Of a stretch of 64,000 bases of DNA, positions 28,842 through 49,700 are shown in pieces. How positions within the stretch are numbered: the first letter of the stretch is position 1; every line of letters begins with the position of its first letter. Made by a program: the position numbers and the translations under genes. A model generated the notes under the pieces. It searched no databases and was not told the DNA's origin. It saw only the letters and a program-made list of their open reading frames with translations. Origin of the DNA: Fibrobacteria bacterium (GTDB taxonomy: Bacteria; Fibrobacterota; Fibrobacteria; UBA11236); assembly GCA_041746255.1 (NCBI GenBank), contig JBGTHM010000014.1, positions 17,713-81,712 of the forward strand. Direction: 5' to 3'.

Positions 28842-29255
28842 ATGTTGTCTCGGATTGCCCAAGTATTTTCCTCCTACGGGGTCTGGCCAATTGGTCCCAG
28901 CCAGGAAAGTCCCTACTCTTCCCCGGAAGTTCAGGTTCCCGCCCAGGGATTTGCCCAGGAAGCCTTTAAATTGGAACTGAGCCGGGGAATCGGAACGCTA
29001 ACGCCTGTAGAGGGGGCGACCAAAACCCAGAACCCGCCCTATTCACAGGCGACTGCTCCACCCCCAAGCCCATCAACCTATAGCCCCCCGGTTCTTGCCC
29101 TTGCCTCTCAGGCACCCGTTCAGCCGCCTAAAGATAGTGCCGGTAATAATGGGGCGAATCCCACCTCGGCCAATAAGCTTCCCGGTTTTGCCGCCTATGC
29201 GGGTGAAAACAGCCGGTCATCCGGAAATTCCTCCCGGCTCGATTTCTACGCCTGA
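28842..29255 (+). CDS. possible Pro/Ser-rich small protein (low confidence)
   Basis: 137 aa ORF in a 554 nt divergent intergenic region, GGAG 12 nt upstream. Low-complexity Pro/Ser/Ala composition. Could be a non-coding spacer. Confidence 0.25.
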   Translation: MLSRIAQVFSSYGVWPIGPSQESPYSSPEVQVPAQGFAQEAFKLELSRGIGTLTPVEGATKTQNPPYSQATAPPPSPSTYSPPVLALASQAPVQPPKDSAGNNGANPTSANKLPGFAAYAGENSRSSGNSSRLDFYA

Positions 29256-30985: not shown

Positions 30986-31183
30986 TGAACCCACCTGGGA
31001 ATGGGGTGACGGGAACTACACCGCTTTAGGTATTGGGATTTATTGGATCCTCTTCAGTTTATTCTGTTCCACGTGAATTCCGTTCGTGTATTTGATCCAG
31101 ACATTCCCTTCCAAAATTTAGATTGTACTAAAGTGGCGACAATCGGCCGGTGCGGCCGGAAATTCGCCCACAAGGGGTATCAC

Positions 31184-31705
31184 ATGGACGTCAAGACGTT
31201 TGATAAAACCGACGAACTCGCGGACTTCGTATACGACGAGATATGCAATCTTCAGGAGAAAGAAGCGCTGGCCAAAATCGAGGCGAAATTGAAAGAGGTC
31301 GCTGCGAATTTGCCGAAAGGGTATTCCATCGCATTAAACTTCACGCTCGAAATTATCGACGAACATCGGGAACGATCCCTGAAAACCTTGCAAACGGGAC
31401 TTTGCTGTGAGCAGGGTCAGGATCCGCAATTCTCATCGGTAGGCGCCTCCCCCGCAAAATATGTGGTGGATGGAGCCATGATGAAGGTGCCGCATGATCA
31501 TTGCCCCAATTGCTGGGCTTTCTGGGGCTTTAAATCCCGTACCAAAGAATGCCGTACTTGCGGATACCAATTGGGTCGTGAAGTGAAGTTGTTGTTGGAT
31601 AGCAATGTCTGTCCTTTTTGCGAGAGCAGCGAAATCTCCCTTTCCCATCCCCGGTGCGGAAGGTGCGGCTACCACGCCGATACCGGCATGGTCGTCTGGG
31701 GCTGA
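31184..31705 (+). CDS. hypothetical protein with two C-terminal zinc-ribbon motifs
   Basis: 173 aa starting at the ATG at 31184 (MDVKTFDK). The pairs CPNC...CRTC and CPFC...CGRC form two CxxC-x(n)-CxxC ribbons. Confidence 0.5.
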   Translation: MDVKTFDKTDELADFVYDEICNLQEKEALAKIEAKLKEVAANLPKGYSIALNFTLEIIDEHRERSLKTLQTGLCCEQGQDPQFSSVGASPAKYVVDGAMMKVPHDHCPNCWAFWGFKSRTKECRTCGYQLGREVKLLLDSNVCPFCESSEISLSHPRCGRCGYHADTGMVVWG

Positions 31706-31760
31706 CAGACTTTCATTGGCCATTCCCGCGCCATCCCCTATAATGGAAAAGGGAGGCATC

Positions 31761-32120
31761 ATGCAGGAAATCGACGAAATCGTCCATCGTCTCCGGCAAA
31801 GGGATTACGCCTTGAAGGATGTGCGTGAAGCCGCGGAAATCGTCGCGGGTTTGCAAAGCCGGGAGCAGATTCTCACCTTGTCGGAAAAATTGCGTTGCGA
31901 CCATTCCCGTCAGGTTCGCATCATGGGGTTGTGTTTGCTTAACGCCCTCGCGAACCAATATCCTCCCGCCCAAGCGGCATTGGGAAAAGCCTCCGCCGAA
32001 GAATCCCTCCATTTGGAAGCCATTAAGCGGCTGGATACGGGCGCCGAGCAAGTGACGACCTCTTATCCGGGTATGGTTTCCTTGATTAAATGCTGGTTGA
32101 AAGAATCCAAGGCCTCCTAA
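31761..32120 (+). CDS. hypothetical small alpha-helical (HEAT-like) protein
   Basis: 119 aa. Strong RBS gggagg 5 nt upstream of the ATG at 31761. Predicted helical repeats (RQVRIMGLCLLNALAN). Confidence 0.5.
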   Translation: MQEIDEIVHRLRQRDYALKDVREAAEIVAGLQSREQILTLSEKLRCDHSRQVRIMGLCLLNALANQYPPAQAALGKASAEESLHLEAIKRLDTGAEQVTTSYPGMVSLIKCWLKESKAS

Positions 32121-32225
32121 GCGATTTTTGCAAATTCCCGATAATTTTGTGAGATTTCCTGCATCCTCCCGCTGTGGGAGGATTTGGTTGCGATTAACCC
32201 TTTTCGTGCCTTCAAGGAGAATCCC

Positions 32226-32660
32226 ATGAAAATTTTCCGGATTTTGGCTGGACTCGCCATTGTAGCGCTTCTTGCTTCCTGCGCCAGCCGTTCCGAACGG
32301 CCGGAGGTCGGCGGTTTCGTCACTTATGGTCTGTACTTTGCCAGTTTGCCTTCGGATCCCACGGTGACCTTCAGCCTTTCGCTGAGCCAGAACAAGACCT
32401 ATACTAAAAGAAGGCATAAAGACGATTGTCTGCTCTCGGAAACAGGCGGTATTTGGAATGCTGATCATGAAGGGCTGGAATTTCATATGGACCGCCTCCG
32501 TCATCGGGGAGATTGCGATTCGGCTTGGGAAGAAAAAAACGAGAAAAAGGTCAGTCGGAGATTCATTCGAGGAATGTCGGCAGCGTCCTTCGAATTGCTC
32601 GACGATGGCGATGGTTACATGGAGCCTGAATGGCTTACCTTCCGGAAGCGCAATCTGTAA
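32226..32660 (+). CDS. hypothetical lipoprotein
   Basis: aaggag RBS 6 nt upstream of the ATG. Signal/lipobox MKIFRILAGLAIVALLASC. 144 aa. Confidence 0.55.
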   Translation: MKIFRILAGLAIVALLASCASRSERPEVGGFVTYGLYFASLPSDPTVTFSLSLSQNKTYTKRRHKDDCLLSETGGIWNADHEGLEFHMDRLRHRGDCDSAWEEKNEKKVSRRFIRGMSAASFELLDDGDGYMEPEWLTFRKRNL

Positions 32661-32702: not shown

Positions 32703-34004
32703 ATGAATTTATTGCAGCAGTATTGTGAAACTCGGCGGGTGACCGAAGGGCTGTGTCGGCCACTCGAAATTGAAGATTATGGCCTACAGTGCATGGACGA
32801 TGTCAGTCCGCCCAAATGGCACCTCGCGCATACCACGTGGTTCTTCGAAACCTTCGTCCTTCGCCCTGAACTACCCGCTTATCGGATTTTCCACTCCCGC
32901 TTTCACGAACTCTTCAATTCATACTACCTAACGGCCGGAGCCCCCCTTTCCCGTTCACGGCGGGGGCGGCTTTCGCGACCGACGGTAGCGGAGATCTATG
33001 CCTACCGCCGGCATGTGGACGAGGCCATGAGAACGTTGCTTGGGGATGATCCGCAAGCGGTGTCGCCCCAAGCCGCAGGGGTTGTCGAGCTCGGCATTCA
33101 TCACGAACAGCAACACCAGGAATTATTGTTGATGGACATCAAATACAATTTCTGGTGCAATCCCTTACGTCCGACCTACCTTGAGCCAAGGTCCGCTTCG
33201 GCTGATCACAGCGTGACGGTTTCAGCGCCGGGGTGGGTCGGTTTCGCCTCCGGTATACGCGAAATCGGCGATAGGGGAGAGCGTTTTGCTTTTGACAATG
33301 AAAAGCCGAGGCATTTGCAGCACCTGGAGTCCTACTCGCTGGCCGACCGTCCCGTTACTTGCGGAGAATTCCTCGAGTTTATCGAAGCCGGGGGTTACGG
33401 CCGCCCGGAATTATGGCTATCCGACGGTTGGGACGCGGTGTCGCGGCTGGGGTGGAATGCCCCTCTGTATTGGGAGCTGGAAGGCGGAGAATGGAGGCAA
33501 TATACGCTGCGCGAAGGCATGCGGCGCATGGATGAAGCCGAGCCCGTTTGCCATATCAGTTATTTCGAAGCGGACGCCTTTGCGCGATGGTCGGGGAAAA
33601 GATTGCCCACCGAAGGAGAGTGGGAGACGGCGGCGAACTCCGTGGTAAAGGAGGAAGGTGACGTCATGGTCGGTGCGAACTTTCTCGAAAGCGGGGAACT
33701 GCATCCTCGCTCCCTGAATCGGGCCAGCGGCGGAGCGGCTTCCCGGCCCGGCTTGCAAAAGCTGTTCGGGGATGTGTGGGAATGGACCCAAAGCGCGTAT
33801 TCAGCCTATCCGGGGTATAGCCCACTCCAGGGAACCCTGGGCGAGTACAACGGTAAATTCATGAACAATAATCTGGTTTTACGCGGCGGCGCCTGTGTCA
33901 CCCCGGGATCGCATTTACGCGTGAGTTACCGGAATTTTTATCGCCCGGATAGTCGATGGCATTTTTCGGGCGTACGCCTGTGCCGGAATGGAAAGAATGA
34001 ATAA
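32703..34004 (+). CDS. egtB: ergothioneine biosynthesis sulfoxide synthase EgtB (DinB_2 + FGE-sulfatase domains)
   Basis: WHLAHTTWFFETFVL and the iron-binding motif HHEQQHQE (HX3HXE). The C-terminal FGE-like domain ends GVRLCRN. 433 aa, with no fused methyltransferase, so it is EgtB rather than OvoA. Confidence 0.8.
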   Translation: MNLLQQYCETRRVTEGLCRPLEIEDYGLQCMDDVSPPKWHLAHTTWFFETFVLRPELPAYRIFHSRFHELFNSYYLTAGAPLSRSRRGRLSRPTVAEIYAYRRHVDEAMRTLLGDDPQAVSPQAAGVVELGIHHEQQHQELLLMDIKYNFWCNPLRPTYLEPRSASADHSVTVSAPGWVGFASGIREIGDRGERFAFDNEKPRHLQHLESYSLADRPVTCGEFLEFIEAGGYGRPELWLSDGWDAVSRLGWNAPLYWELEGGEWRQYTLREGMRRMDEAEPVCHISYFEADAFARWSGKRLPTEGEWETAANSVVKEEGDVMVGANFLESGELHPRSLNRASGGAASRPGLQKLFGDVWEWTQSAYSAYPGYSPLQGTLGEYNGKFMNNNLVLRGGACVTPGSHLRVSYRNFYRPDSRWHFSGVRLCRNGKNE

Positions 34005-34968
34005 TACCCTGGAACCCTTATGCGATTTGGCTCCTGAAATGGGAATGCAACCCGAAGAAATCCTTACCGGCCTCACGAAAACGCCGAAAATTTTACCGCC
34101 GAAATACTTATACGATTCGCGGGGATCCCGGCTTTTCGACCGTATTTGTGACTTGCCGGAATATTATCCCACCCGATCCGAAGTCGAAATACTCAATGAA
34201 CATGCCTTCGAAATGGCGGCATCAATCGGGAACGACGCCGTGCTGATCGAATACGGCAGCGGCAGTAGCCTGAAAACGGATATTTTGCTCAAGAATTTGA
34301 CCGAGGTAGCCGCCTACGTTGCCATCGATATCGCACGCGAACATTTGCTGACTTCGGTGGAGAGTTTATCGGAGCGCTTTCCCGATCTCCGGATATTCCC
34401 CGTATGCGCTGATTACATGCGCTTGGATACTTTGCCGATTGAAGGGGATTTACCCGGCGGCAAGAGGGTGGTTTTTTTTCCGGGGTCGACTCTGGGTAAT
34501 CTTCACCCTCAGGATGCGGCTTCCCTATTGCGCCGCATGCGCCGGCTGTACGGGCCCGATGGTTATCTCATACTCGGCGTGGATTTACGCAAAGATAAAC
34601 GGGTGCTGGAAAACGCCTATAATGATTCCCAAAATGTTACGGCCCAGTTCAATTTAAACCTGCTTCGCCGTCTGAATAGAGAACTGGGAGCCGATTTCCG
34701 CTTGGAGGCCTTCCGTCATCTGGCCTTTTTCAATGCGGAAAAATCCCGGATTGAAATGCACCTGGAATCGCTTTGTAAACAGTCGGTCACCCTGGTGGGG
34801 AAGCAGGTGTGGTTTGAGAAAGGTGAAACCTTGCACACGGAAAACTCTTATAAGTATGGCCTTGAGGAAATTCGCTCCCTGCTGCGCGCGACCGGTTTCG
34901 ATCCGGTGGCGAGTTGGACGGATTCCCGCGGACTTTTCAGCCTTCACTTCGGTCGATCCTCCTACTAG
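33988..34968 (+). CDS. egtD: L-histidine N-alpha-methyltransferase EgtD
   Basis: YLYDSRGSRLFDRICDLPEYYPTRSE is the EgtD N-terminal signature. SAM-methyltransferase fold. 326 aa. Overlaps the egtB stop by 17 nt. Confidence 0.8.
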   Translation: MERMNNTLEPLCDLAPEMGMQPEEILTGLTKTPKILPPKYLYDSRGSRLFDRICDLPEYYPTRSEVEILNEHAFEMAASIGNDAVLIEYGSGSSLKTDILLKNLTEVAAYVAIDIAREHLLTSVESLSERFPDLRIFPVCADYMRLDTLPIEGDLPGGKRVVFFPGSTLGNLHPQDAASLLRRMRRLYGPDGYLILGVDLRKDKRVLENAYNDSQNVTAQFNLNLLRRLNRELGADFRLEAFRHLAFFNAEKSRIEMHLESLCKQSVTLVGKQVWFEKGETLHTENSYKYGLEEIRSLLRATGFDPVASWTDSRGLFSLHFGRSSY

Positions 34969-35046
34969 GCCTGGCAGCCTGAGCCCCCAGCCGTTCCTTT
35001 GCCAACCTATAAAAGGCTTGTGCGGTATTTTTCAAACATTTATCTC

Positions 35047-36285
35047 ATGAATAAGGGGGTGGATGTGAAACCAACGGGGGGCGAAATGGGGAATAAGGCG
35101 ATCGCTTTGAATCATGCCAAGGAGGGTATTGATTCCTCCGACTTCTCGGAGTTGACCGAACCTCGTGAGGGATGGTGTGTTTCCCTTTATCTCCCGCTTG
35201 TAACCACGGGTAGGGAACTCCACCAGTCTCCCATCCGCTTGAAGAATCTCAGGGGCCGGGCTTATGAATTGTTGCGGGAAAAAGGCATGCGCGGTTCCGA
35301 CTTGGAAGCGTTTTTCGAACCCTTGGACAACCATTTCTCCACCGCTTTCATTGATAAATATCAGGGGCAGGGTTTGTGCCTTTTCCTGGCTGAGGGTTTC
35401 TTTCGCTGCTTCTATCCTCCCTTGCGATTCGACGAATTCGTACACCTTGGCCATCGCTTTCATTTGAAGCCGCTGCTTCCCCTCATATCGGAGGGGCGAA
35501 GGTCGTATCTGGTGCTGGCCCTGGGCTTGCATCAAACCCGGCTTTTCCGGATGACGTTACAAAGTATGGAAGAAATGGATTTGCCGGGCGTGCCGTCTAC
35601 GATCGAAGGAGCGCTGAATAAAGATGTTCCGGAACAGGGTCAGCAATTTTATACCGGAACTCCTTCGCAAGGACCCGGTCGCATGAGGCCGGCTATTTTT
35701 TTCGGCACCGGAGGCGGCCGGGACGGTCGCGAGATGAAAAGAGAGATCCTGCAATATTTCAAAATCGTGGATGGCAAGCTGCAAGGCGTAATGGCGAATG
35801 AGCGCGATCCTCTGCTGCTGGCGGGGATTGATTATTTACTTCCGCTTTTTCGAGACGCTTCTGCTTATGGAAATATCCTGGATGAAGCCATCACGGTCAA
35901 TTCGGAAGGAATGTCGGTAGGCGCTCTTCATGCGCTGGCCTGGGAGAAAGTCAAGCCGCAACGGGACCTGGCGGTGACGGAGGCTCTGGAAAAATACCGG
36001 GCGAAAATGGCGTCCGGTCTGGGAGGCAATGACCTCTTCGCCGTAGTCCCCGCGGCAGCCTATGGTCGAGTGGAACAGTTGTTTCTGCCGGGCGGGCGCA
36101 ATAAATGGGGCGCCTTCGACATGAATTCCGGACGGGTGGAAATCCATTCCACCGAGAAGGAGAATAGTGTCGATTTACTGGACCTGGCGGCGGCCCAAAC
36201 GTTGCGGAACAACGGAGAGGTTTTCGTCCTGGATGCCGAAGCCATGCCCGACCATACCGGCATCGCCGCAGGCTATCGCTACTGA
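35047..36285 (+). CDS. hypothetical protein with an eRF1/Pelota-like C-terminal domain (baeRF-like, bacterial archaeo-eukaryotic release-factor family)
   Basis: The C-terminal end ...VDLLDLAAAQTLRNNGEVFVLDAEAMPDHTGIAAGYRY resembles the GGIGAILRY terminus of eRF1/Pelota domain 3. About 410 aa. Start ambiguous (ATG at 35047 or 35086). Confidence 0.5.
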   Translation: MNKGVDVKPTGGEMGNKAIALNHAKEGIDSSDFSELTEPREGWCVSLYLPLVTTGRELHQSPIRLKNLRGRAYELLREKGMRGSDLEAFFEPLDNHFSTAFIDKYQGQGLCLFLAEGFFRCFYPPLRFDEFVHLGHRFHLKPLLPLISEGRRSYLVLALGLHQTRLFRMTLQSMEEMDLPGVPSTIEGALNKDVPEQGQQFYTGTPSQGPGRMRPAIFFGTGGGRDGREMKREILQYFKIVDGKLQGVMANERDPLLLAGIDYLLPLFRDASAYGNILDEAITVNSEGMSVGALHALAWEKVKPQRDLAVTEALEKYRAKMASGLGGNDLFAVVPAAAYGRVEQLFLPGGRNKWGAFDMNSGRVEIHSTEKENSVDLLDLAAAQTLRNNGEVFVLDAEAMPDHTGIAAGYRY

Positions 36286-37394
36286 TCCGATTCCGAATCC
36301 TTTGCTCGACCCGCTGTGGGGCTATCCGACTGCGAGTGGAGTTCGGCGCGCACCCGCGGCAGTGCGGCGGGATATTCCCTTTGGATAAAAGCAATCATGC
36401 GTTCGCGCAGCAGGCATCGCAAATCCCAGGCTTGGGAGGCATCCTTCGCGCTGACTAGAAGCCGCAGTTCCAGGGTTTCCGGTTTGGAATCGGTGACTTG
36501 CAGCCCGCACACTTTTCCGTCCCAAAGGTCGGTGGTTTTGACCTGTTTCAACAATTCTTGGCGTATTTCCTCCACGGGTACCGTATAGTCGGTATACAGG
36601 AATACGGTGCCCAGGATATCCGCCGAGACTCGGGTCCAATTCTGGAAAGGCGTTTCGATAAAATAAGTTATGGGTACTACGAGGCGCCGCAAATCCCAGA
36701 TTCGCACAACGACATAGGTCAAGGTGATTTCCTCGATGCGTCCCCATTCCCCTTCCACAATGACCACGTCATCCATGCGAATAGGCTGGGTGATGGCGAT
36801 TTGAATTCCCGCCAACAAGGTGCTGATGCTTTTCTGCGCCGCCAAGCCGATGATTATACCCGCAATGCCAGCGGAAGCCAGGATGCTCACGCCGATCTGG
36901 CGGATGCTCTCGAAAGTCATGAGCATGAAGGCGGCCGATGCGATAATCACCACCACCAACAGGACTTTCTCCAGAACCCCGATCTGGGTATACACTTTGC
37001 GGGCCAGCAGATTATCACCCGCGCCTATGTCATGCCTTTTCAATACCATGTCCCGCAAAAAGGAGATGCCATTGATGAGGAGAAAGGAGATGGAAGCGAT
37101 AAAGAGCAGGCTCATGCTGTGATGGAAGAGACCCATGGCCGATGGGGGCAGGCGCAGCGAAGGAACCACCAAGTTGATGAAAAGCAGAGGAAATATGAGA
37201 CGGCTGGGTTTACGGGCATACCGCAGTAGGGCTTCGTCTCCAAAAATACCGGTATGGCCGCTGAGCCGACCCAGGATTTTGAACAGCATGGCATGCACAA
37301 TGAGGCCCAGCAGGATTGCGCTGAGCACATACCCGGCTGAAATCAGCAGGTCATGCGAAAAATAGGCATGGGGTAGGGTTTTAAGGAATTCCAT
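36279..37394 (-). CDS. mechanosensitive ion channel (MscS family)
   Basis: N-terminal TM helices followed by the MscS beta-domain region (LVVPITYFIETPFQNWTRVSADILGTVFLYTDY, GEWGRIEEITLTYVVVRIWD). 371 aa. Confidence 0.8.
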   Translation of the reverse strand: MEFLKTLPHAYFSHDLLISAGYVLSAILLGLIVHAMLFKILGRLSGHTGIFGDEALLRYARKPSRLIFPLLFINLVVPSLRLPPSAMGLFHHSMSLLFIASISFLLINGISFLRDMVLKRHDIGAGDNLLARKVYTQIGVLEKVLLVVVIIASAAFMLMTFESIRQIGVSILASAGIAGIIIGLAAQKSISTLLAGIQIAITQPIRMDDVVIVEGEWGRIEEITLTYVVVRIWDLRRLVVPITYFIETPFQNWTRVSADILGTVFLYTDYTVPVEEIRQELLKQVKTTDLWDGKVCGLQVTDSKPETLELRLLVSAKDASQAWDLRCLLRERMIAFIQREYPAALPRVRAELHSQSDSPTAGRAKDSESDQ

Positions 37395-44945: not shown

Positions 44946-45791
44946 TTAAGCCCCTATCTTCTGGAGCAGCTTTCCTTTGAGCTTCAACATGGCTTTGGAA
45001 TGGATTTGGGAAACCCTCGATTCGGTGAGGTTGAGCACTTCGCCGATTTCCTTGAGAGTCAACTCTTCGTAGTGGTATAGGGCCACCACCAGTTTTTCTT
45101 TTTCCGGGAGAGCGGAAATCGTCTCCTTCAAGATCCGTTTCACTTCCTTATACCCCAGCTCCTGCAGGGGATTGCTACCCTGCGAATCTTCGATGGTATC
45201 GATAAGCGAAAGCGACTTGTTCTCTTCTCCGCGCGCGGGTAGCGCCTCCTCCAGGGATAATATGGTGGTGGGCGCTGAATCGGTCACCATGGCCTCGAAT
45301 TCGTCCAGGGTGATATTGAGATGGGCGGCCACCTCATCGTCATAAGGCATGCGGCCATATTCGTTTTCCAATTGCGCGTAAGCCTTGTGCAGCGTACGCG
45401 CCTTCTGGCGGACCGATCGGGGTACCCAATCGAGAGTCCTCAATTCATCCAGGATGGCGCCGCGGATTTTATGGGTCGCGAAGGTTTCGAACTTGAGCCC
45501 CCGTTCGGGTTCGAAGGTGTCCACGGCTTTGAGGAGACCCATGATGCCCGAACCGACCAGATCGTCGTATTCAACCGAAGCGGGAAGATTGATGGCCACT
45601 CGATGGGCGACGTGTTTGACTACTCCGGCATAATGCACCAGGAGCTTGTCCTTTAATGCCTTGTCGCCGGTGGCGCGGAATTCGGTCCAGGTCCGGAGAA
45701 TATCCTCTTGCGGAATGCCGGCTTCTTTGACGGAAGGCTGCGCCAGTCCTTCCATGGTGGTCTTGCCCTGTTTGTTTTCCCGGATGGTCAT
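44946..45791 (-). CDS. fliA: flagellar RNA polymerase sigma factor FliA/WhiG (sigma-28)
   Basis: Sigma-70 region 2 (YDDLVGSGIMGLLKAVDTFEPERGLKFETFATHKIRGAI) and region 4 (LTLKEIGEVLNLTESRVSQI). Its position right after flhF is conserved. Confidence 0.88.
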   Translation of the reverse strand: MTIRENKQGKTTMEGLAQPSVKEAGIPQEDILRTWTEFRATGDKALKDKLLVHYAGVVKHVAHRVAINLPASVEYDDLVGSGIMGLLKAVDTFEPERGLKFETFATHKIRGAILDELRTLDWVPRSVRQKARTLHKAYAQLENEYGRMPYDDEVAAHLNITLDEFEAMVTDSAPTTILSLEEALPARGEENKSLSLIDTIEDSQGSNPLQELGYKEVKRILKETISALPEKEKLVVALYHYEELTLKEIGEVLNLTESRVSQIHSKAMLKLKGKLLQKIGA

Positions 45792-45806
45792 GGATGAACT
45801 TCAGCC

Positions 45807-46145
45807 CTAGGGCTTCTTGCCTTTTTTGACCGCGCCGGACGCGCCTTCGTTTGCGGTAACGGCCGATGCTTCCGGGGACTTGAAATGCGTGAGAATCCCC
45901 CGTTGTTCGGGAAGCAAGGTGGCGTCACGGGCGGAGGCCATCAGCGATTTGACGAAAGTATCGCTGACGATGAGGAAGAATATCCAACTCGCCGTCGCCA
46001 GCAGCAAACCTTTCACCAAAGCGGTTACGATAGTTTGCCAGGAAAAATCGGAGGATAGAAACAGTGAGAAGCCCACGGTAAAGAAAAACAACAGGGTAAT
46101 GAGATACCGGGTTATTTGTTGGGTCAGCCGGGCCGTTTTTGTCAT
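45807..46145 (-). CDS. hypothetical small membrane protein (sits where flhG/ylxH is usually found)
   Basis: 112 aa with two predicted TM helices (ITRYLITLLFFFTVGFSLFL, LVKGLLLATASWIFFLIVS) and a Lys-rich C-terminus. No P-loop. Confidence 0.5.
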   Translation of the reverse strand: MTKTARLTQQITRYLITLLFFFTVGFSLFLSSDFSWQTIVTALVKGLLLATASWIFFLIVSDTFVKSLMASARDATLLPEQRGILTHFKSPEASAVTANEGASGAVKKGKKP

Positions 46146-46276
46146 AGTTTACAGCGTTTCGCTCCCAGAGGGATGGGGGAGAGTGCAGTCGGCAATCTCC
46201 TTACAGCCCAATTATGGCTTCCGGTTCCCTTCGGTTGCAAGCAGATTCTCCTCTCCACCTCACGGGGGCGGGCGCT

Positions 46277-47623
46277 TCAGGCCACCATACGGGCATTGGC
46301 CTCCACCATCGCAAATAACCCTTGCAATACCAAGGAGGCTGCGTTTTGCGCGGTGGCGGCGCAAATGTCCTGGGGTATGGACTGGCCGTTGCAGATAAAG
46401 GAAACCGGGAGCACCGAACTGGAGAGCGAGGGGATGCATCCCAGCCCCAAACATTCGTCCACTTTGGTGAAGATGAGAGAGGACGCCCCGAGTGTCTGAT
46501 ATTGGTCGGCCATGCGCTGGAGTTCTTTCAGCCTTGTGGTGCAGCTTAGGGTCAGGTGTATTTCGTCGGGTTGCACGGCCAGAACCAAAGCGCGTAATTC
46601 CTCCCAGGCCTCGGGCTTGCGGTGGTTTCGTCCGGCGGTGTCAACGAGGATATAATCGCAATGGGCGAAAGAACGTAAGGCGTCGCGCGCGTCGGCGCCA
46701 TCGAAAACCGTGCGCACGGGAATTCCCGTCGACTGTCCGAAAACCTTCAAATGTTCGTCCGCTCCCATGCGGTGGCCGTCTGCGGATAGGATGGCGACTT
46801 TCAATCCCGATTCGAATTGCGCGCGCGCGGCAAGTTTTGCGATGGTCGTGGTTTTTCCCACACCGGTGGGCCCAGCCAGCATGCAAACGGCCGGCTTGCC
46901 TTGGCGCCGACGCATACCGGGCAGCACGCGAATGCGGCGGGAAAGCCACCTCTCCAGCCAGGGCCCCACTTTTAGGGGATCAGACGTCTGGGAGGGAGGA
47001 AGCGCTTCGGAAAGCTGGGTCAGGGCCTGGCGTGCAAGTCCCGGGTCCATGTCGATGGAGAGGAGGATGTCGTTCAGCCCTTCGAGATGCACGGGCAAGG
47101 GGGCGGCGGCCGGGATGGGAATCGCCTGGGTTATCGCCTGCTGTTCGGCGCGGGAGGAATTGACCGCGGCCAACATATCCTTGATTTCACCGCGCAGAAT
47201 CTGCAGTTCCCGCGTCGGCATTTCCACGCTTTCACGGACTTGTTTCAATTCGGTGCGAATCCAATCCATCATCGCCGGCTCGGGCGTCTGTTCCTTGGGA
47301 GCTTTAGCAGGAGTGGTTTTGCCCGGCGCCGAGACGGAATCCTCCTCCACCACGGGAAGCCTGCCACGCCAGTCATAGGTTTTGGGCGCGGCGGGTTCCA
47401 TCCGTGTTTCCTGCCGGGGCGGTTCCTTGGAAGTTATGGGCTGGGGCTTGGCGTACAAGCTTTCGTCGAGGGCGGCCGTGACTTCCACGAAATCGCGGTT
47501 GCGTCCCAGAACGCGGCGCGACCCTTTTTTGGTTTTTAGAATGACCGCCTCCGGTCCCAGTTCATCCTTGATCTGGGACAGGGCTTCTTGCATGGTTTCC
47601 GCTTTATACGTTTTCATCTTCAT
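46277..47623 (-). CDS. flhF: flagellar biosynthesis GTPase FlhF
   Basis: N-terminus MKMKTYKAETMQEALSQIKDELG. SRP-type GTPase motifs GPTGVGKTTT, DTAGR. 448 aa. Confidence 0.88.
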   Translation of the reverse strand: MKMKTYKAETMQEALSQIKDELGPEAVILKTKKGSRRVLGRNRDFVEVTAALDESLYAKPQPITSKEPPRQETRMEPAAPKTYDWRGRLPVVEEDSVSAPGKTTPAKAPKEQTPEPAMMDWIRTELKQVRESVEMPTRELQILRGEIKDMLAAVNSSRAEQQAITQAIPIPAAAPLPVHLEGLNDILLSIDMDPGLARQALTQLSEALPPSQTSDPLKVGPWLERWLSRRIRVLPGMRRRQGKPAVCMLAGPTGVGKTTTIAKLAARAQFESGLKVAILSADGHRMGADEHLKVFGQSTGIPVRTVFDGADARDALRSFAHCDYILVDTAGRNHRKPEAWEELRALVLAVQPDEIHLTLSCTTRLKELQRMADQYQTLGASSLIFTKVDECLGLGCIPSLSSSVLPVSFICNGQSIPQDICAATAQNAASLVLQGLFAMVEANARMVA

Positions 47624-49700
47624 TCAATACCACCGTGCCTGCTGCTTTGACGTTTATGCCGTTCACGATTTCACTATAGGAGAGAACGGCTAGGGTAGGA
47701 AAAGAACCTTCGAGAATTTTTTTCATTTGATAGCGGATGCCGGGCGAGCAAAGTAGCACGGGCTGCTGGTTGCCCGCCACCATTTTTTCCACCAGCGAGG
47801 CGAGCTTACCCACCAGTTTGCTGACCATTTCGGGCCGGATTACCAGGCGGGGCCCGCGGTCGGTGCTTTGTACCGACGCTTCCAGCATTTGTTCCAGTCG
47901 GGGCTCGAGGCTCAGAACGTTAACGTAGCCCTTCGCATCCTTGAAGCTTTTGCAAATATGCCGGGAGAGCGCCTGCCGGGCTTGTTCGGTAAGGAACACT
48001 TCTGATTTCGATACTTTGGCGGCATTGGCCAGGGCTTCGAGTATGGTGGCCAGATCGCGTACGGCGACTTTTTCCGCCAACAGATTGATCAGTACTTTCT
48101 GCACTTCGCCGATGCTCAGCATAGCCGGAATCAATTCTTCCACGACGGTGGGGCTGGTGGTTTTGACATTGTCGATAAGCGACTTCACGTCTTGGCGGGT
48201 CAGGATTTCGCCCGCGTTGGTACGGATGATTTCCGTCAGGTGGGTGGCGATGACGGCCGGAAGCTCTACGACGGTGTATCCGGCGATTTCGGCGTTCTCC
48301 CGCTGCGATTGGGTGATCCACAGTGCCGGCAGTCCGAAGGCGGGCTCGGTAGTGGGCGTGCCCGGTACCTTTTGGCTCACGCCTCCGGGGTCCATGGCCA
48401 AGAAGCATCCGGTCATCAATTCGCCGCCCCCGACTTCGATGCTCTTGATTTTAACCAGGTATTCGTTGGGCTTGAGTTGGATATTGTCGCGTATGCGTAT
48501 GGGTGGGACGATGATTCCGATATCGGTGGCGCATTGACGGCGCAGCATGGTGATGCGTTCGAGTAAATCTCCCCCCTGATTGGGATCAACCAGCGATATC
48601 AGTCCGTAGCCGATTTCCAATTCCATCTGGTCGACGCGGAGGTAGGCTTCGATTTTATCGGACTCCGGCTCCATTTTCGCATCGGCCTGGTTTTGTTTCT
48701 CCAAGGCCTCGGAAACCCGTTTGGCCTTGCCGGCGCGATTGACCAGGTAACCGACGCCGGTAATCGAACCCGCCAGAATCAAAAAGGGCATGGTGGGCAT
48801 TCCTGGAATTATGGCCGCCACCGCCATGAAACCGCCGCCTAGATACAACGATTTAACGTTCTGGGTCAATTGCATGGTGACCTCGGTACCGAGATTCTTT
48901 TTCGAAGCCGCGCGGGCGACCATGATACCGGCGGCGGTGGAGATCATCAAGGCGGGTGTTTGCGTGACCAGTCCGTCGCCGATGGTCAATTGGGTGAAGG
49001 TGATGAGGGAATCCTGGAAGCTCATGCCCTGCATGGTCATTCCCACTACGAATCCCGCCAGGATATTGACCAGGGTGATGATGATTCCGGCGATGGCGTC
49101 GCCGCGGACGAATTTACTCGCGCCGTCCATGGCGCCGTAGAAATCGGATTCCCGGCTGATGTCGCGTCTGCGCGTTTTGGCTTCTTCTTCGGTGATTAAA
49201 CCCGCGTTCAAATCGGCGTCCACGGCCATTTGCTTACCCGGCATGGCGTCCAAAGTAAATCGCGCGGCGACTTCCGCGATGCGGCCGGAACCCTTGGTGA
49301 TGACCACGAATTGGATGATGACCAGGATGATGAAAATGATGACGCCCACCACGATGTTCCCTTTGGTCACGAAGGTGCCGAAGGTCTGGATGACTGCGCC
49401 CGCCTCGCCTTCCGAGAGAATGAGCCGGGTGGACGCGACGTTCAGGGATAAGCGGAACAGCGTGATGATGAGCAGGAGCCCGGGAAACACCGAGAAGTCG
49501 AGAACGTTTTCGATATACATGGAGATGAGGAGAATGATAATGGCCAGCGATATCATTACCGACAGGAGAATATCCAGCACGAATTGGGGAAGGGGGATCA
49601 TCATCATGCCGATAATGCCCACCACCATCAAGGCGATGGCCATGTCTTTTTGCTGGACGATGCGGTCCAATAGGGTCGGCTTTATGGCTAGTACTTGCAT
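47604..49700 (-). CDS. flhA: flagellar type III export protein FlhA
   Basis: 698 aa with eight N-terminal TM helices and the conserved FHIPEP region (RFTLDAMPGKQMAVDADLNAGLI). Confidence 0.92.
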   Translation of the reverse strand: MQVLAIKPTLLDRIVQQKDMAIALMVVGIIGMMMIPLPQFVLDILLSVMISLAIIILLISMYIENVLDFSVFPGLLLIITLFRLSLNVASTRLILSEGEAGAVIQTFGTFVTKGNIVVGVIIFIILVIIQFVVITKGSGRIAEVAARFTLDAMPGKQMAVDADLNAGLITEEEAKTRRRDISRESDFYGAMDGASKFVRGDAIAGIIITLVNILAGFVVGMTMQGMSFQDSLITFTQLTIGDGLVTQTPALMISTAAGIMVARAASKKNLGTEVTMQLTQNVKSLYLGGGFMAVAAIIPGMPTMPFLILAGSITGVGYLVNRAGKAKRVSEALEKQNQADAKMEPESDKIEAYLRVDQMELEIGYGLISLVDPNQGGDLLERITMLRRQCATDIGIIVPPIRIRDNIQLKPNEYLVKIKSIEVGGGELMTGCFLAMDPGGVSQKVPGTPTTEPAFGLPALWITQSQRENAEIAGYTVVELPAVIATHLTEIIRTNAGEILTRQDVKSLIDNVKTTSPTVVEELIPAMLSIGEVQKVLINLLAEKVAVRDLATILEALANAAKVSKSEVFLTEQARQALSRHICKSFKDAKGYVNVLSLEPRLEQMLEASVQSTDRGPRLVIRPEMVSKLVGKLASLVEKMVAGNQQPVLLCSPGIRYQMKKILEGSFPTLAVLSYSEIVNGINVKAAGTVVLNEDENV

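Follow-up and report, generated by a model that had tools for sequence, protein, structure and literature searches.

A divergent Fibrobacterota member of the Balon family of bacterial eRF1 relatives, encoded next to ergothioneine genes

An open reading frame (ORF) lies directly 3' of egtB and egtD, on the same strand, in a stretch of 64,000 nucleotides of contig JBGTHM010000014.1 (assembly GCA_041746255.1, positions 17,713 to 81,712), hereafter called the window, the host of which is an uncultured Fibrobacterota bacterium. The locus raises the question of what kind of translation factor the ORF could encode, how such a protein would act on the ribosome and whether the ergothioneine genes have anything to do with it. 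A preliminary description had read the ORF at 35047-36285 as a bacterial relative of eRF1 and Pelota (a baeRF-type protein), guessing the superfamily from the C-terminal nonapeptide, and had remarked on its place after egtD on the same strand. As checks it had proposed a Foldseek comparison, a look for GGQ- or NIKS-like loops and a comparison of gene neighbourhoods; a similarity confined to the terminal nonapeptide was to count against it. The features of the locus are collected in Table 1.

Table 1 Features of the Balon-like gene, its product and its neighbours (positions in the window; amino acids in 412-aa numbering)
Feature	Position	Strand	Basis or remarks
egtB	32703-34004	+	DinB_2 and FGE-sulfatase domains; TIGR03440 549 bits, cut-off 360
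egtD	33988-34968	+	Methyltransf_33; TIGR03438 397 bits, cut-off 291
Conserved non-coding block CTTGTGCGGTATTTTTCAAACATTTATCTCA	35017-35047	+	39-69 nt 5' of ATG 35086
Balon-like (baeRF) CDS, probable extent, 399 aa and stop	35086-36285	+	ORF, homologues, Pfam, NF052287, start comparison with L003, dN/dS
N-terminal domain	35119-35496	+	approx. aa 25-150; equivalent to the decoding-centre domain of Balon/aeRF1
N-domain loop and start of helix, PLVTTGRELHQSPIRLKN	35194-35247	+	aa 50-67; column counts, 120 members and Balon
Middle domain	35497-35958	+	approx. aa 151-304; Pfam match aa 154-304 and model
Long Gly-rich loop of the middle domain	35614-35724	+	aa 190-226; pLDDT <50 at aa 194-204 and 215-224
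C-terminal domain (Pelota/eRF1 domain-3-like)	35959-36282	+	aa 305-412
Predicted two-strand beta-hairpin insert of the C domain	36106-36144	+	aa 354-366; DSSP strands 354-358 and 363-366
C-terminal motif A-A-G-Y-R-Y	36265-36282	+	family columns
MscS-type mechanosensitive channel gene	36279-37394	-	Pfam MS_channel_2nd; convergent, 7-nt 3' overlap with the baeRF gene

The uninterrupted ORF extends from 34999 to 36285 on the forward strand, with a first possible start codon, TTG, at 34999 and the stop codon at 36283-36285. Read from the ATG at 35047, the start used by the public gene call and in the preliminary description, it consists of 412 codons plus the stop. This ORF is intact and terminates in ...EVFVLDAEAMPDHTGIAAGYRY, the C-terminal end of the translation being ...NNGEVFVLDAEAMPDHTGIAAGYRY; the frame, the ending and the orientation shared with egtD are thus as first described. 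The start codon is another matter. In the locus of a relative encoding a 69 % identical protein (L003), the counterpart of ATG 35047 is missing, and that of ATG 35086 is kept, with AAAGGAGGG in front of it; at the equivalent position the window has six consecutive G (35076-35081). Judged by this comparison, the ORF given earlier is real and its start more likely lies at ATG 35086, which would give a product of 399 instead of 412 amino acids, a size that also fits the typical family length of 380-390 aa. Counted from the end of egtD (34968), the gap before ATG 35047 measures 78 nt and that before ATG 35086 measures 117 nt.

An identical protein is already present in public data (P0001). Homologues numbered 212 at E ≤ 0.001; when P0001 and the 69 % identical relative are set aside, the best of them reaches E 7.6e-82. 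Compared with the orthologue in L003, the baeRF gene has a dN/dS of 0.23/1.38, approximately 0.17; in the same pair of genomes purE, purK and the MscS gene are more tightly constrained (0.06-0.09) and egtD is similar (0.18). The ORF is certainly a true gene, far beyond chance, and is under purifying selection.

The protein scores above the gathering cut-offs of five Pfam baeRF families (3, 7, 6, 11 and 8), most strongly with baeRF_family7 (111.9 bits, cut-off 27.2, E 3.6e-32, aa 154-304) and with baeRF_family3 over its middle domain (109.6 bits, cut-off 31.5, E 2.8e-31), families 6, 11 and 8 giving weaker matches. It therefore belongs to the baeRF-1 clade of the aeRF1 superfamily, together with these families of Burroughs and Aravind (2019), the models of which cover the middle domain only and were defined before any function was known. 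The suggested baeRF identity is borne out by these matches, and with the models matching the middle domain the similarity is not confined to the terminal nonapeptide. The sequence of Balon from Psychrobacter urativorans, rebuilt from the alignment, scores 105.6 bits on baeRF_family3, compared with the 109.6 bits of the query.

The best match in NCBIfam was NF052287 (E 1.2e-22), which aligned end to end, query aa 34-412 on model positions 2-361. This model, the 'AOC03_06830 family ribosome hibernation factor', is built around P. urativorans Balon (NCBIfam). The query scored 80.9 bits, under the equivalog cut-off of 330, and so would not be named Balon by the NCBI rule; other members of its subfamily scored 148-176 bits, and on NF052288 the query obtained 14.9 bits against a cut-off of 480. 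A single-sequence search of PDB sequences with the query gave nothing meaningful, a family profile being needed. The profile used for the PDB and cluster searches and for the structure model (A1, an alignment of 47 family members) matched Balon chain 8rd8_B over residues 3-369 (E 1.8e-36) and Mycobacterium smegmatis Balon, MSMEG_1130, via the N domain (E 1.3e-5). The query has approximately 18 % amino acid identity with P. urativorans Balon and a median of 37 % with the rest of its subfamily, the members of which share a median of 45 % among themselves. The 2024 paper took as homologues of Balon those proteins of 300 aa or more that iterated HMMER searches recovered, and the query (399-412 aa), with its full-length profile and NF052287 matches, comes within this definition. 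These results support a divergent but ordinary member of the Balon family, a bacterial relative of eRF1. The superfamily guessed from the nonapeptide was right, the closest characterised relatives being the Balon hibernation factors.

The subfamily to which the query most likely belongs is a sister of Balon and is both large and already covered by Pfam, as seen from the Pfam matches and from the number of 50 %-identity clusters found with profile A1 among 1.84 billion representatives (11,915 at E ≤ 1e-3 and 5,686 at E ≤ 1e-30). Members occur in Cyanobacteria, Chloroflexota, Gemmatimonadota, Desulfobacterota, Planctomycetota and others, and most of their database entries are labelled 'hypothetical' or 'baeRF3 domain-containing'. 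We know of no experimentally tested member of this exact subfamily. Its cyanobacterial members have approximately 21 % identity with Psychrobacter Balon; for the Balon of Synechocystis, 30 % identity with Psychrobacter Balon has been reported (bioRxiv 10.64898/2026.07.03.736309). The supplements consulted of the Balon paper contain no mention of Fibrobacterota.

The AlphaFold2 model built with A1 (mean pLDDT 85.2, pTM 0.78) has the three-domain fold of aeRF1, with an N domain, an RNase-H-like middle domain and a Pelota-type C domain, disorder being limited to the N-terminal extension and aa 194-224. The middle domain is equivalent to the domain of Balon and aeRF1 that binds the peptidyl-transferase centre. 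A Foldseek search of the PDB, as proposed in the preliminary description, placed the three chains of P. urativorans Balon on top (E approximately 1e-21, TM 0.66-0.76), followed by Msmeg1130 (4e-18), archaeal aRF1 (2e-13) and Rv2629 (1e-12), with eRF1 and Pelota/Dom34 ranking lower (TM approximately 0.2-0.4). The predicted structure thus resembles Balon on the ribosome more closely than it does aeRF1 or Pelota.

Motifs were counted in the 120 best homologues aligned with Balon. The loop and the beginning of the helix in the N domain, PLVTTGRELHQSPIRLKN, align with THREHPANDQDPIALKN of Balon, which holds the sole HP dipeptide of the Balon N domain, and the motif Q-x-P-I-x-L-K-N is common to both proteins (DQDPIALKN in Balon). 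The HP motif of Balon, which we take to be this dipeptide, H27-P28, aligns with G55-R56 of the query and is absent from it; at the first of these positions 100 of the 120 family members have G, and R, P or A comes second. In Balon the HP motif contacts A1492 and A1913 (PMC10901736), and the Balon of Synechocystis reportedly uses other residues at this position (bioRxiv 10.64898/2026.07.03.736309). Near the decoding centre, the T-H-R of the subfamily is L-V-T in the query, and L-V-T or L-E-I in its clade.

The long loop of the middle domain (aa 190-226) is found at the place of the GGQ loop of eRF1 and of the lasso loop of Balon, which wraps A2602 (PMC10901736); it is longer than the lasso loop and differs from it in sequence. 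Another element of Balon is its bL27 trap loop. The subfamily has here the motif F-H-G-[H/Q]-G (H in 102, G in 111, H in 72 or Q in 35 with T in three, and G in 99 of 120 members). In the query the motif reads F-F-G-T-G, and the 69 % identical relative has G at the position of the T (F-F-G-[T/G]-G). Neither of the loop motifs looked for, GGQ and NIKS, is present in the query. GGQ occurs in 15 of the 120 family members, in no single conserved column, and NIKS in none of the 120. The query and its relative (P0002) share the changes of their clade, P-L-V-T-T-G-R for P-T-H-R-x-G-x and F-F-G-T-G for F-H-G-[H/Q]-G, and in the Fibrobacterota clade neither loop that is predicted to lie opposite an active centre of the ribosome has kept its subfamily motif, other residues having replaced it. 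This clade-specific remodelling is the sole unusual point of the gene.

The hairpin predicted in the C domain opens with W354-G355, which are near-invariant in the family (W and G each in 119 of 120 members), and aligns with residues 310-322 of Balon. A two-strand insert has been noted in baeRF-1 proteins (PMC6514570) and a beta-loop described in Balon (PMC10901736); in the model, the hairpin may correspond to this beta-loop, by which Balon contacts EF-Tu(GDP). The protein ends in a family motif, A-A-x-[F/L/Y]-R-Y (A in 111, A in 117, R in 119 and Y in 106 of 120 members), and P. urativorans Balon ends in ...ALVTRY.

The closest known system is Balon (AOC03_06830) of P. urativorans (PDB 8RD8, 8RDV and 8RDW; Helena-Bueno et al., Nature 2024). 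On vacant and translating ribosomes alike, Balon binds in the A site, for which it does not depend on mRNA; there it holds the peptidyl-transferase centre in an inert state and brings in EF-Tu(GDP), and its mycobacterial homologues bind the A site likewise (PMC10901736). Hibernating ribosomes carrying a Balon have likewise been observed in a cyanobacterium (bioRxiv 10.64898/2026.07.03.736309). As the homology extends over the full length, the fold agrees and both catalytic motifs are lost, the mechanism of Balon is assigned to the query, which by analogy is probably a three-domain, Balon-type, non-catalytic factor of ribosome hibernation in the A site. From homology and the predicted fold we infer its binding to the ribosome, the time of its expression and its contact, if any, with EF-Tu: during starvation or stress the protein would enter the A site of the 70S ribosome without reading mRNA, its N domain would contact the decoding centre and its C domain would point toward the factor-binding site, perhaps with EF-Tu(GDP) as a partner, and the ribosomes would be held inactive and protected until growth resumes. 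Counting against a function like that of Balon are the identity of approximately 18 %, the replacement of HP by G-R, the longer loop and the lost T-H-R and F-H-G-[H/Q]-G motifs.

The query, known here from its sequence and a model, differs from P. urativorans Balon also in its score on NF052287 (81 bits, equivalog cut-off 330), in the other motif of its loop and in having no RaiA/HPF neighbour. With the mycobacterial proteins Msmeg1130 and Rv2629 (PDB 8V9J, 8V9L and 8V9K), the genes of which lie in hypoxia-response contexts, its detectable likeness in sequence is limited to the N domain. It shares common ancestry, domain order and the C-terminal ...RY with aRF1 and eRF1 (Foldseek E 2e-13 to 1e-8) but lacks their NIKS and GGQ motifs. 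With Pelota/Dom34 only approximately 130 residues align, the match does not extend over the whole length or the Pelota-type N domain, and no GTPase or ABCE1-type partner is evident for the query. Pelota splits ribosomes, whereas Balon-type factors store them.

The genes upstream, egtB and egtD, are genuine ergothioneine genes that do not belong to the baeRF system. The window and the relative have one gene order in common, purE-purK-zinc-ribbon protein-two unknown ORFs-egtB-egtD-baeRF-MscS. Among named sequences, those closest to the ProRS encoded in the window (65-67 % identity) come from Fibrobacteria MAGs, and the title 'Bifidobacteriales' of the relative's contig therefore looks wrong. The egtB of the relative was considered as a decayed pseudogene, and this was rejected, the break being a scaffold gap of 100 N. 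In tblastn searches within 6 kb, EgtB or EgtD were found only in the lineage of the window (L001-L003) and in none of 79 other loci. The adjacency of egtD is therefore uninformative: the place of the gene behind egtBD is peculiar to the lineage and does not amount to a functional module.

The neighbours of the gene in the window are egtB, egtD, the MscS gene, purEK and genes for a double zinc-ribbon protein and a Zn-dependent dehydrogenase, the last of these being followed further downstream by a hybrid histidine kinase, a WG-repeat protein, an HDOD protein and FliA/FlhF/FlhA. Balon genes tend toward stress-response operons (RaiA/HPF, Hsp20, OsmC/Y and others), a tendency rather than a strict rule. 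This typical location is not seen in the window, and no HPF/RaiA or other classic stress partner was found among the genes examined, approximately 10 kb to either side. The window contains no baeRF paralogue. Neighbourhoods were compared, as proposed, by clustering and by counting Pfam families in 261 ORFs around the gene at 78 loci, 141 of them immediate neighbours and 120 in second place. No partner gene conserved across phyla emerged, the commonest neighbour families reaching just 4-5 clade-bound loci. At these 78 loci HPF was an immediate neighbour in two of 141 cases, Usp occurred twice and Na/H exchangers three times. MscS-type genes were sporadic (four of 141 immediate neighbours, and L064; some Nostocales and one Brocadiaceae contig), and in Syntrophales epmA (an EpmA-like lysyl-tRNA-synthetase paralogue), efp (EF-P) and epmB (LAM_C radical-SAM) adjoin the gene. 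Published accounts describe contexts that vary and relate loosely to stress, and the neighbourhoods of the subfamily agree with them.

In the spacer between egtD and the baeRF gene, a block of 31 nt (Table 1) is identical in L003 at 28 positions; outside it the spacer has diverged and contains a 30-nt indel. Since the block was kept while the spacer diverged, the baeRF gene appears to have transcription signals of its own, and the block is probably its promoter or operator. No second copy of the block was found within the window, no match in a sigma-70 promoter scan of the spacer, block included, and no significant fold of the leader RNA (z-score -0.66), the block lying outside any stable fold; an Rfam search detected tRNAs only. 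No terminator was predicted between egtD and the baeRF gene, and transcription may read through from the one into the other.

A hibernation factor is not the only protein that could be built on this fold. It is also the fold of aRF1, eRF1 and Pelota, and an active rescue factor of the eRF1 or Pelota kind, releasing nascent peptides or splitting subunits on stalled ribosomes, would agree with the rescue roles that Burroughs and Aravind proposed for baeRF-1 proteins, a few families of which, such as family 10, retain the catalytic glutamine (PMC6514570). The glutamine that 35 of the 120 subfamily members have in the F-H-G-[H/Q]-G loop could be taken in the same sense; the variability of this position, where the query has T and the relative has G, argues against a catalytic glutamine, and we consider rescue activity quite improbable. 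Burroughs and Aravind also tied the innovation of baeRF-1 proteins to biological conflicts and described lateral transfer (PMC6514570), which would suit a system of phage defence or of conflict between bacteria aimed at translation. PADLOC gave no match for the gene or its neighbours, 2.9 million viral contigs yielded no relative and no conserved neighbour resembling an effector or immunity protein was seen at 78 loci, all of which makes such a role very hard to credit.

The surroundings of the gene suggest two further possibilities. A partner of the ergothioneine pathway, whether an enzyme, a chaperone or a regulator of EgtB or EgtD, might be looked for on the same strand directly 3' of egtD, where no terminator intervenes; against this, the protein is folded like a ribosome-binding factor, the conserved block of the spacer suggests separate transcription signals and the association is missing from the 79 loci of other lineages, so that this highly implausible explanation is already close to refuted. 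It is unlikely, though somewhat easier to entertain, that the clade consists of Balon relatives which still bind ribosomes but in which the mode of engagement, the trigger or the timing has changed, for example to oxidative or osmotic stress, in a lineage-specific stress island containing egtBD (antioxidant) and MscS (osmotic valve). The replacements specific to the clade in both predicted active-centre loops, under purifying selection, would agree with such a change, as would the order egtB-egtD-baeRF-MscS kept in both members of the lineage, the conserved upstream block and the greater distance of the query from its subfamily than of the members from each other (the median identities given above). 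However, the arrangement is found in two genomes only, so the synteny may reflect shared ancestry, linkage to egt genes does not extend across phyla, and loop sequences also vary between functional Balons (PMC10901736). A Balon-type hibernation factor remains the reading that we prefer.

The gene opens no new question, its adjacency to ergothioneine genes having no cross-lineage support, and it adds a divergent Fibrobacterota member to the Balon/baeRF family. It suggests that neither the HP motif nor the lasso-loop sequence of Psychrobacter Balon is family-wide. A large subfamily now labelled 'hypothetical' or 'baeRF3 domain-containing' matches, in structure and over the full length, hibernation factors defined by experiment, which aids its annotation.

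The public gene call for the identical protein (P0001) places the start of the Balon-like gene at ATG 35047, corresponding to 412 amino acids. This codon has no counterpart in the relative with 69 % amino acid identity, whereas ATG 35086 is kept there and is preceded by a Shine-Dalgarno-like run, so a product of 399 amino acids, starting at ATG 35086, is more likely. Upstream of the gene, 28 of the 31 nt of a non-coding block are the same in the relative, while the remaining spacer has diverged. No second copy of this block was found within the window, and neither an RNA fold nor a sigma-70 match was found for it; it probably serves as a promoter or operator of unrecognised type.

The contig carrying the relative (L003, CAYNXV010000146.1) bears the record title 'uncultured Bifidobacteriales bacterium'. 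This contig and the window share synteny, with 58-89 % protein identity between their genes, and the closest relatives of the ProRS encoded in the window are from Fibrobacteria MAGs; the 'Bifidobacteriales' label therefore looks wrong. The order of a double zinc-ribbon protein gene and three small ORFs is also kept between the two contigs. The three ORFs had no Pfam matches; a lipoprotein-like signal sequence is present in the one at 32184-32660.

The ergothioneine genes directly upstream of the Balon-like gene form a set of two, egtB and egtD. No egtA, egtC or egtE was present among the genes examined within approximately 10 kb. The EgtB of the window scored 330 bits with the model of the selenoneine synthase SenA, which is under the 420-bit cut-off of that model. 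Elsewhere in the window, genes for flagellar export and its regulation (FlhA, FlhF, FliA), together with an HDOD protein gene, indicate that this Fibrobacterota lineage is motile.

Features in the window and MscS-type genes at related loci
Feature	Position	Strand	Remarks
egtB and egtD	32703-34968
Double zinc-ribbon protein gene with three small ORFs, jointly	31043-31705, 31758-32120, 32184-32660, 28842-29255
Non-coding block CTTGTGCGGTATTTTTCAAACATTTATCTCA	35017-35047		31 nt, upstream of Balon-like gene; conservation compared with L003
MscS-type mechanosensitive channel gene	36279-37394	-	Adjoins Balon-like gene
FlhA, FlhF, FliA and HDOD protein	44946-49700	-
MscS-type gene	L064:359-1294		Beside subfamily member
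MscS-type gene	L005, L006, L009, L010		Beside subfamily member, gene +1

In the alignment of 120 subfamily members, the motif F-H-G-[H/Q]-G is well conserved (query amino acids 217-222) in the loop replacing the GGQ of eRF1, which is predicted to face the peptidyl-transferase centre. Balon of P. urativorans does not have this motif, and the Fibrobacterota pair, i.e. the query and its relative, has lost it.

In Syntrophales and 'Deltaproteobacteria' MAGs (L034, L056, L058, L065 and L077), an EpmA-like lysyl-tRNA-synthetase paralogue, efp and a lysine-2,3-aminomutase (EpmB-like) gene adjoin the Balon-like gene as genes -3 to -1, in divergent orientation. This neighbourhood is translation-related and limited to one clade. 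MscS-type genes make up 4 of the 141 immediate neighbours of subfamily members, and adjoin them in Fibrobacterota, Brocadiaceae and some Nostocales, three lineages unrelated to one another; this recurrence weakly hints at a link to osmotic stress.
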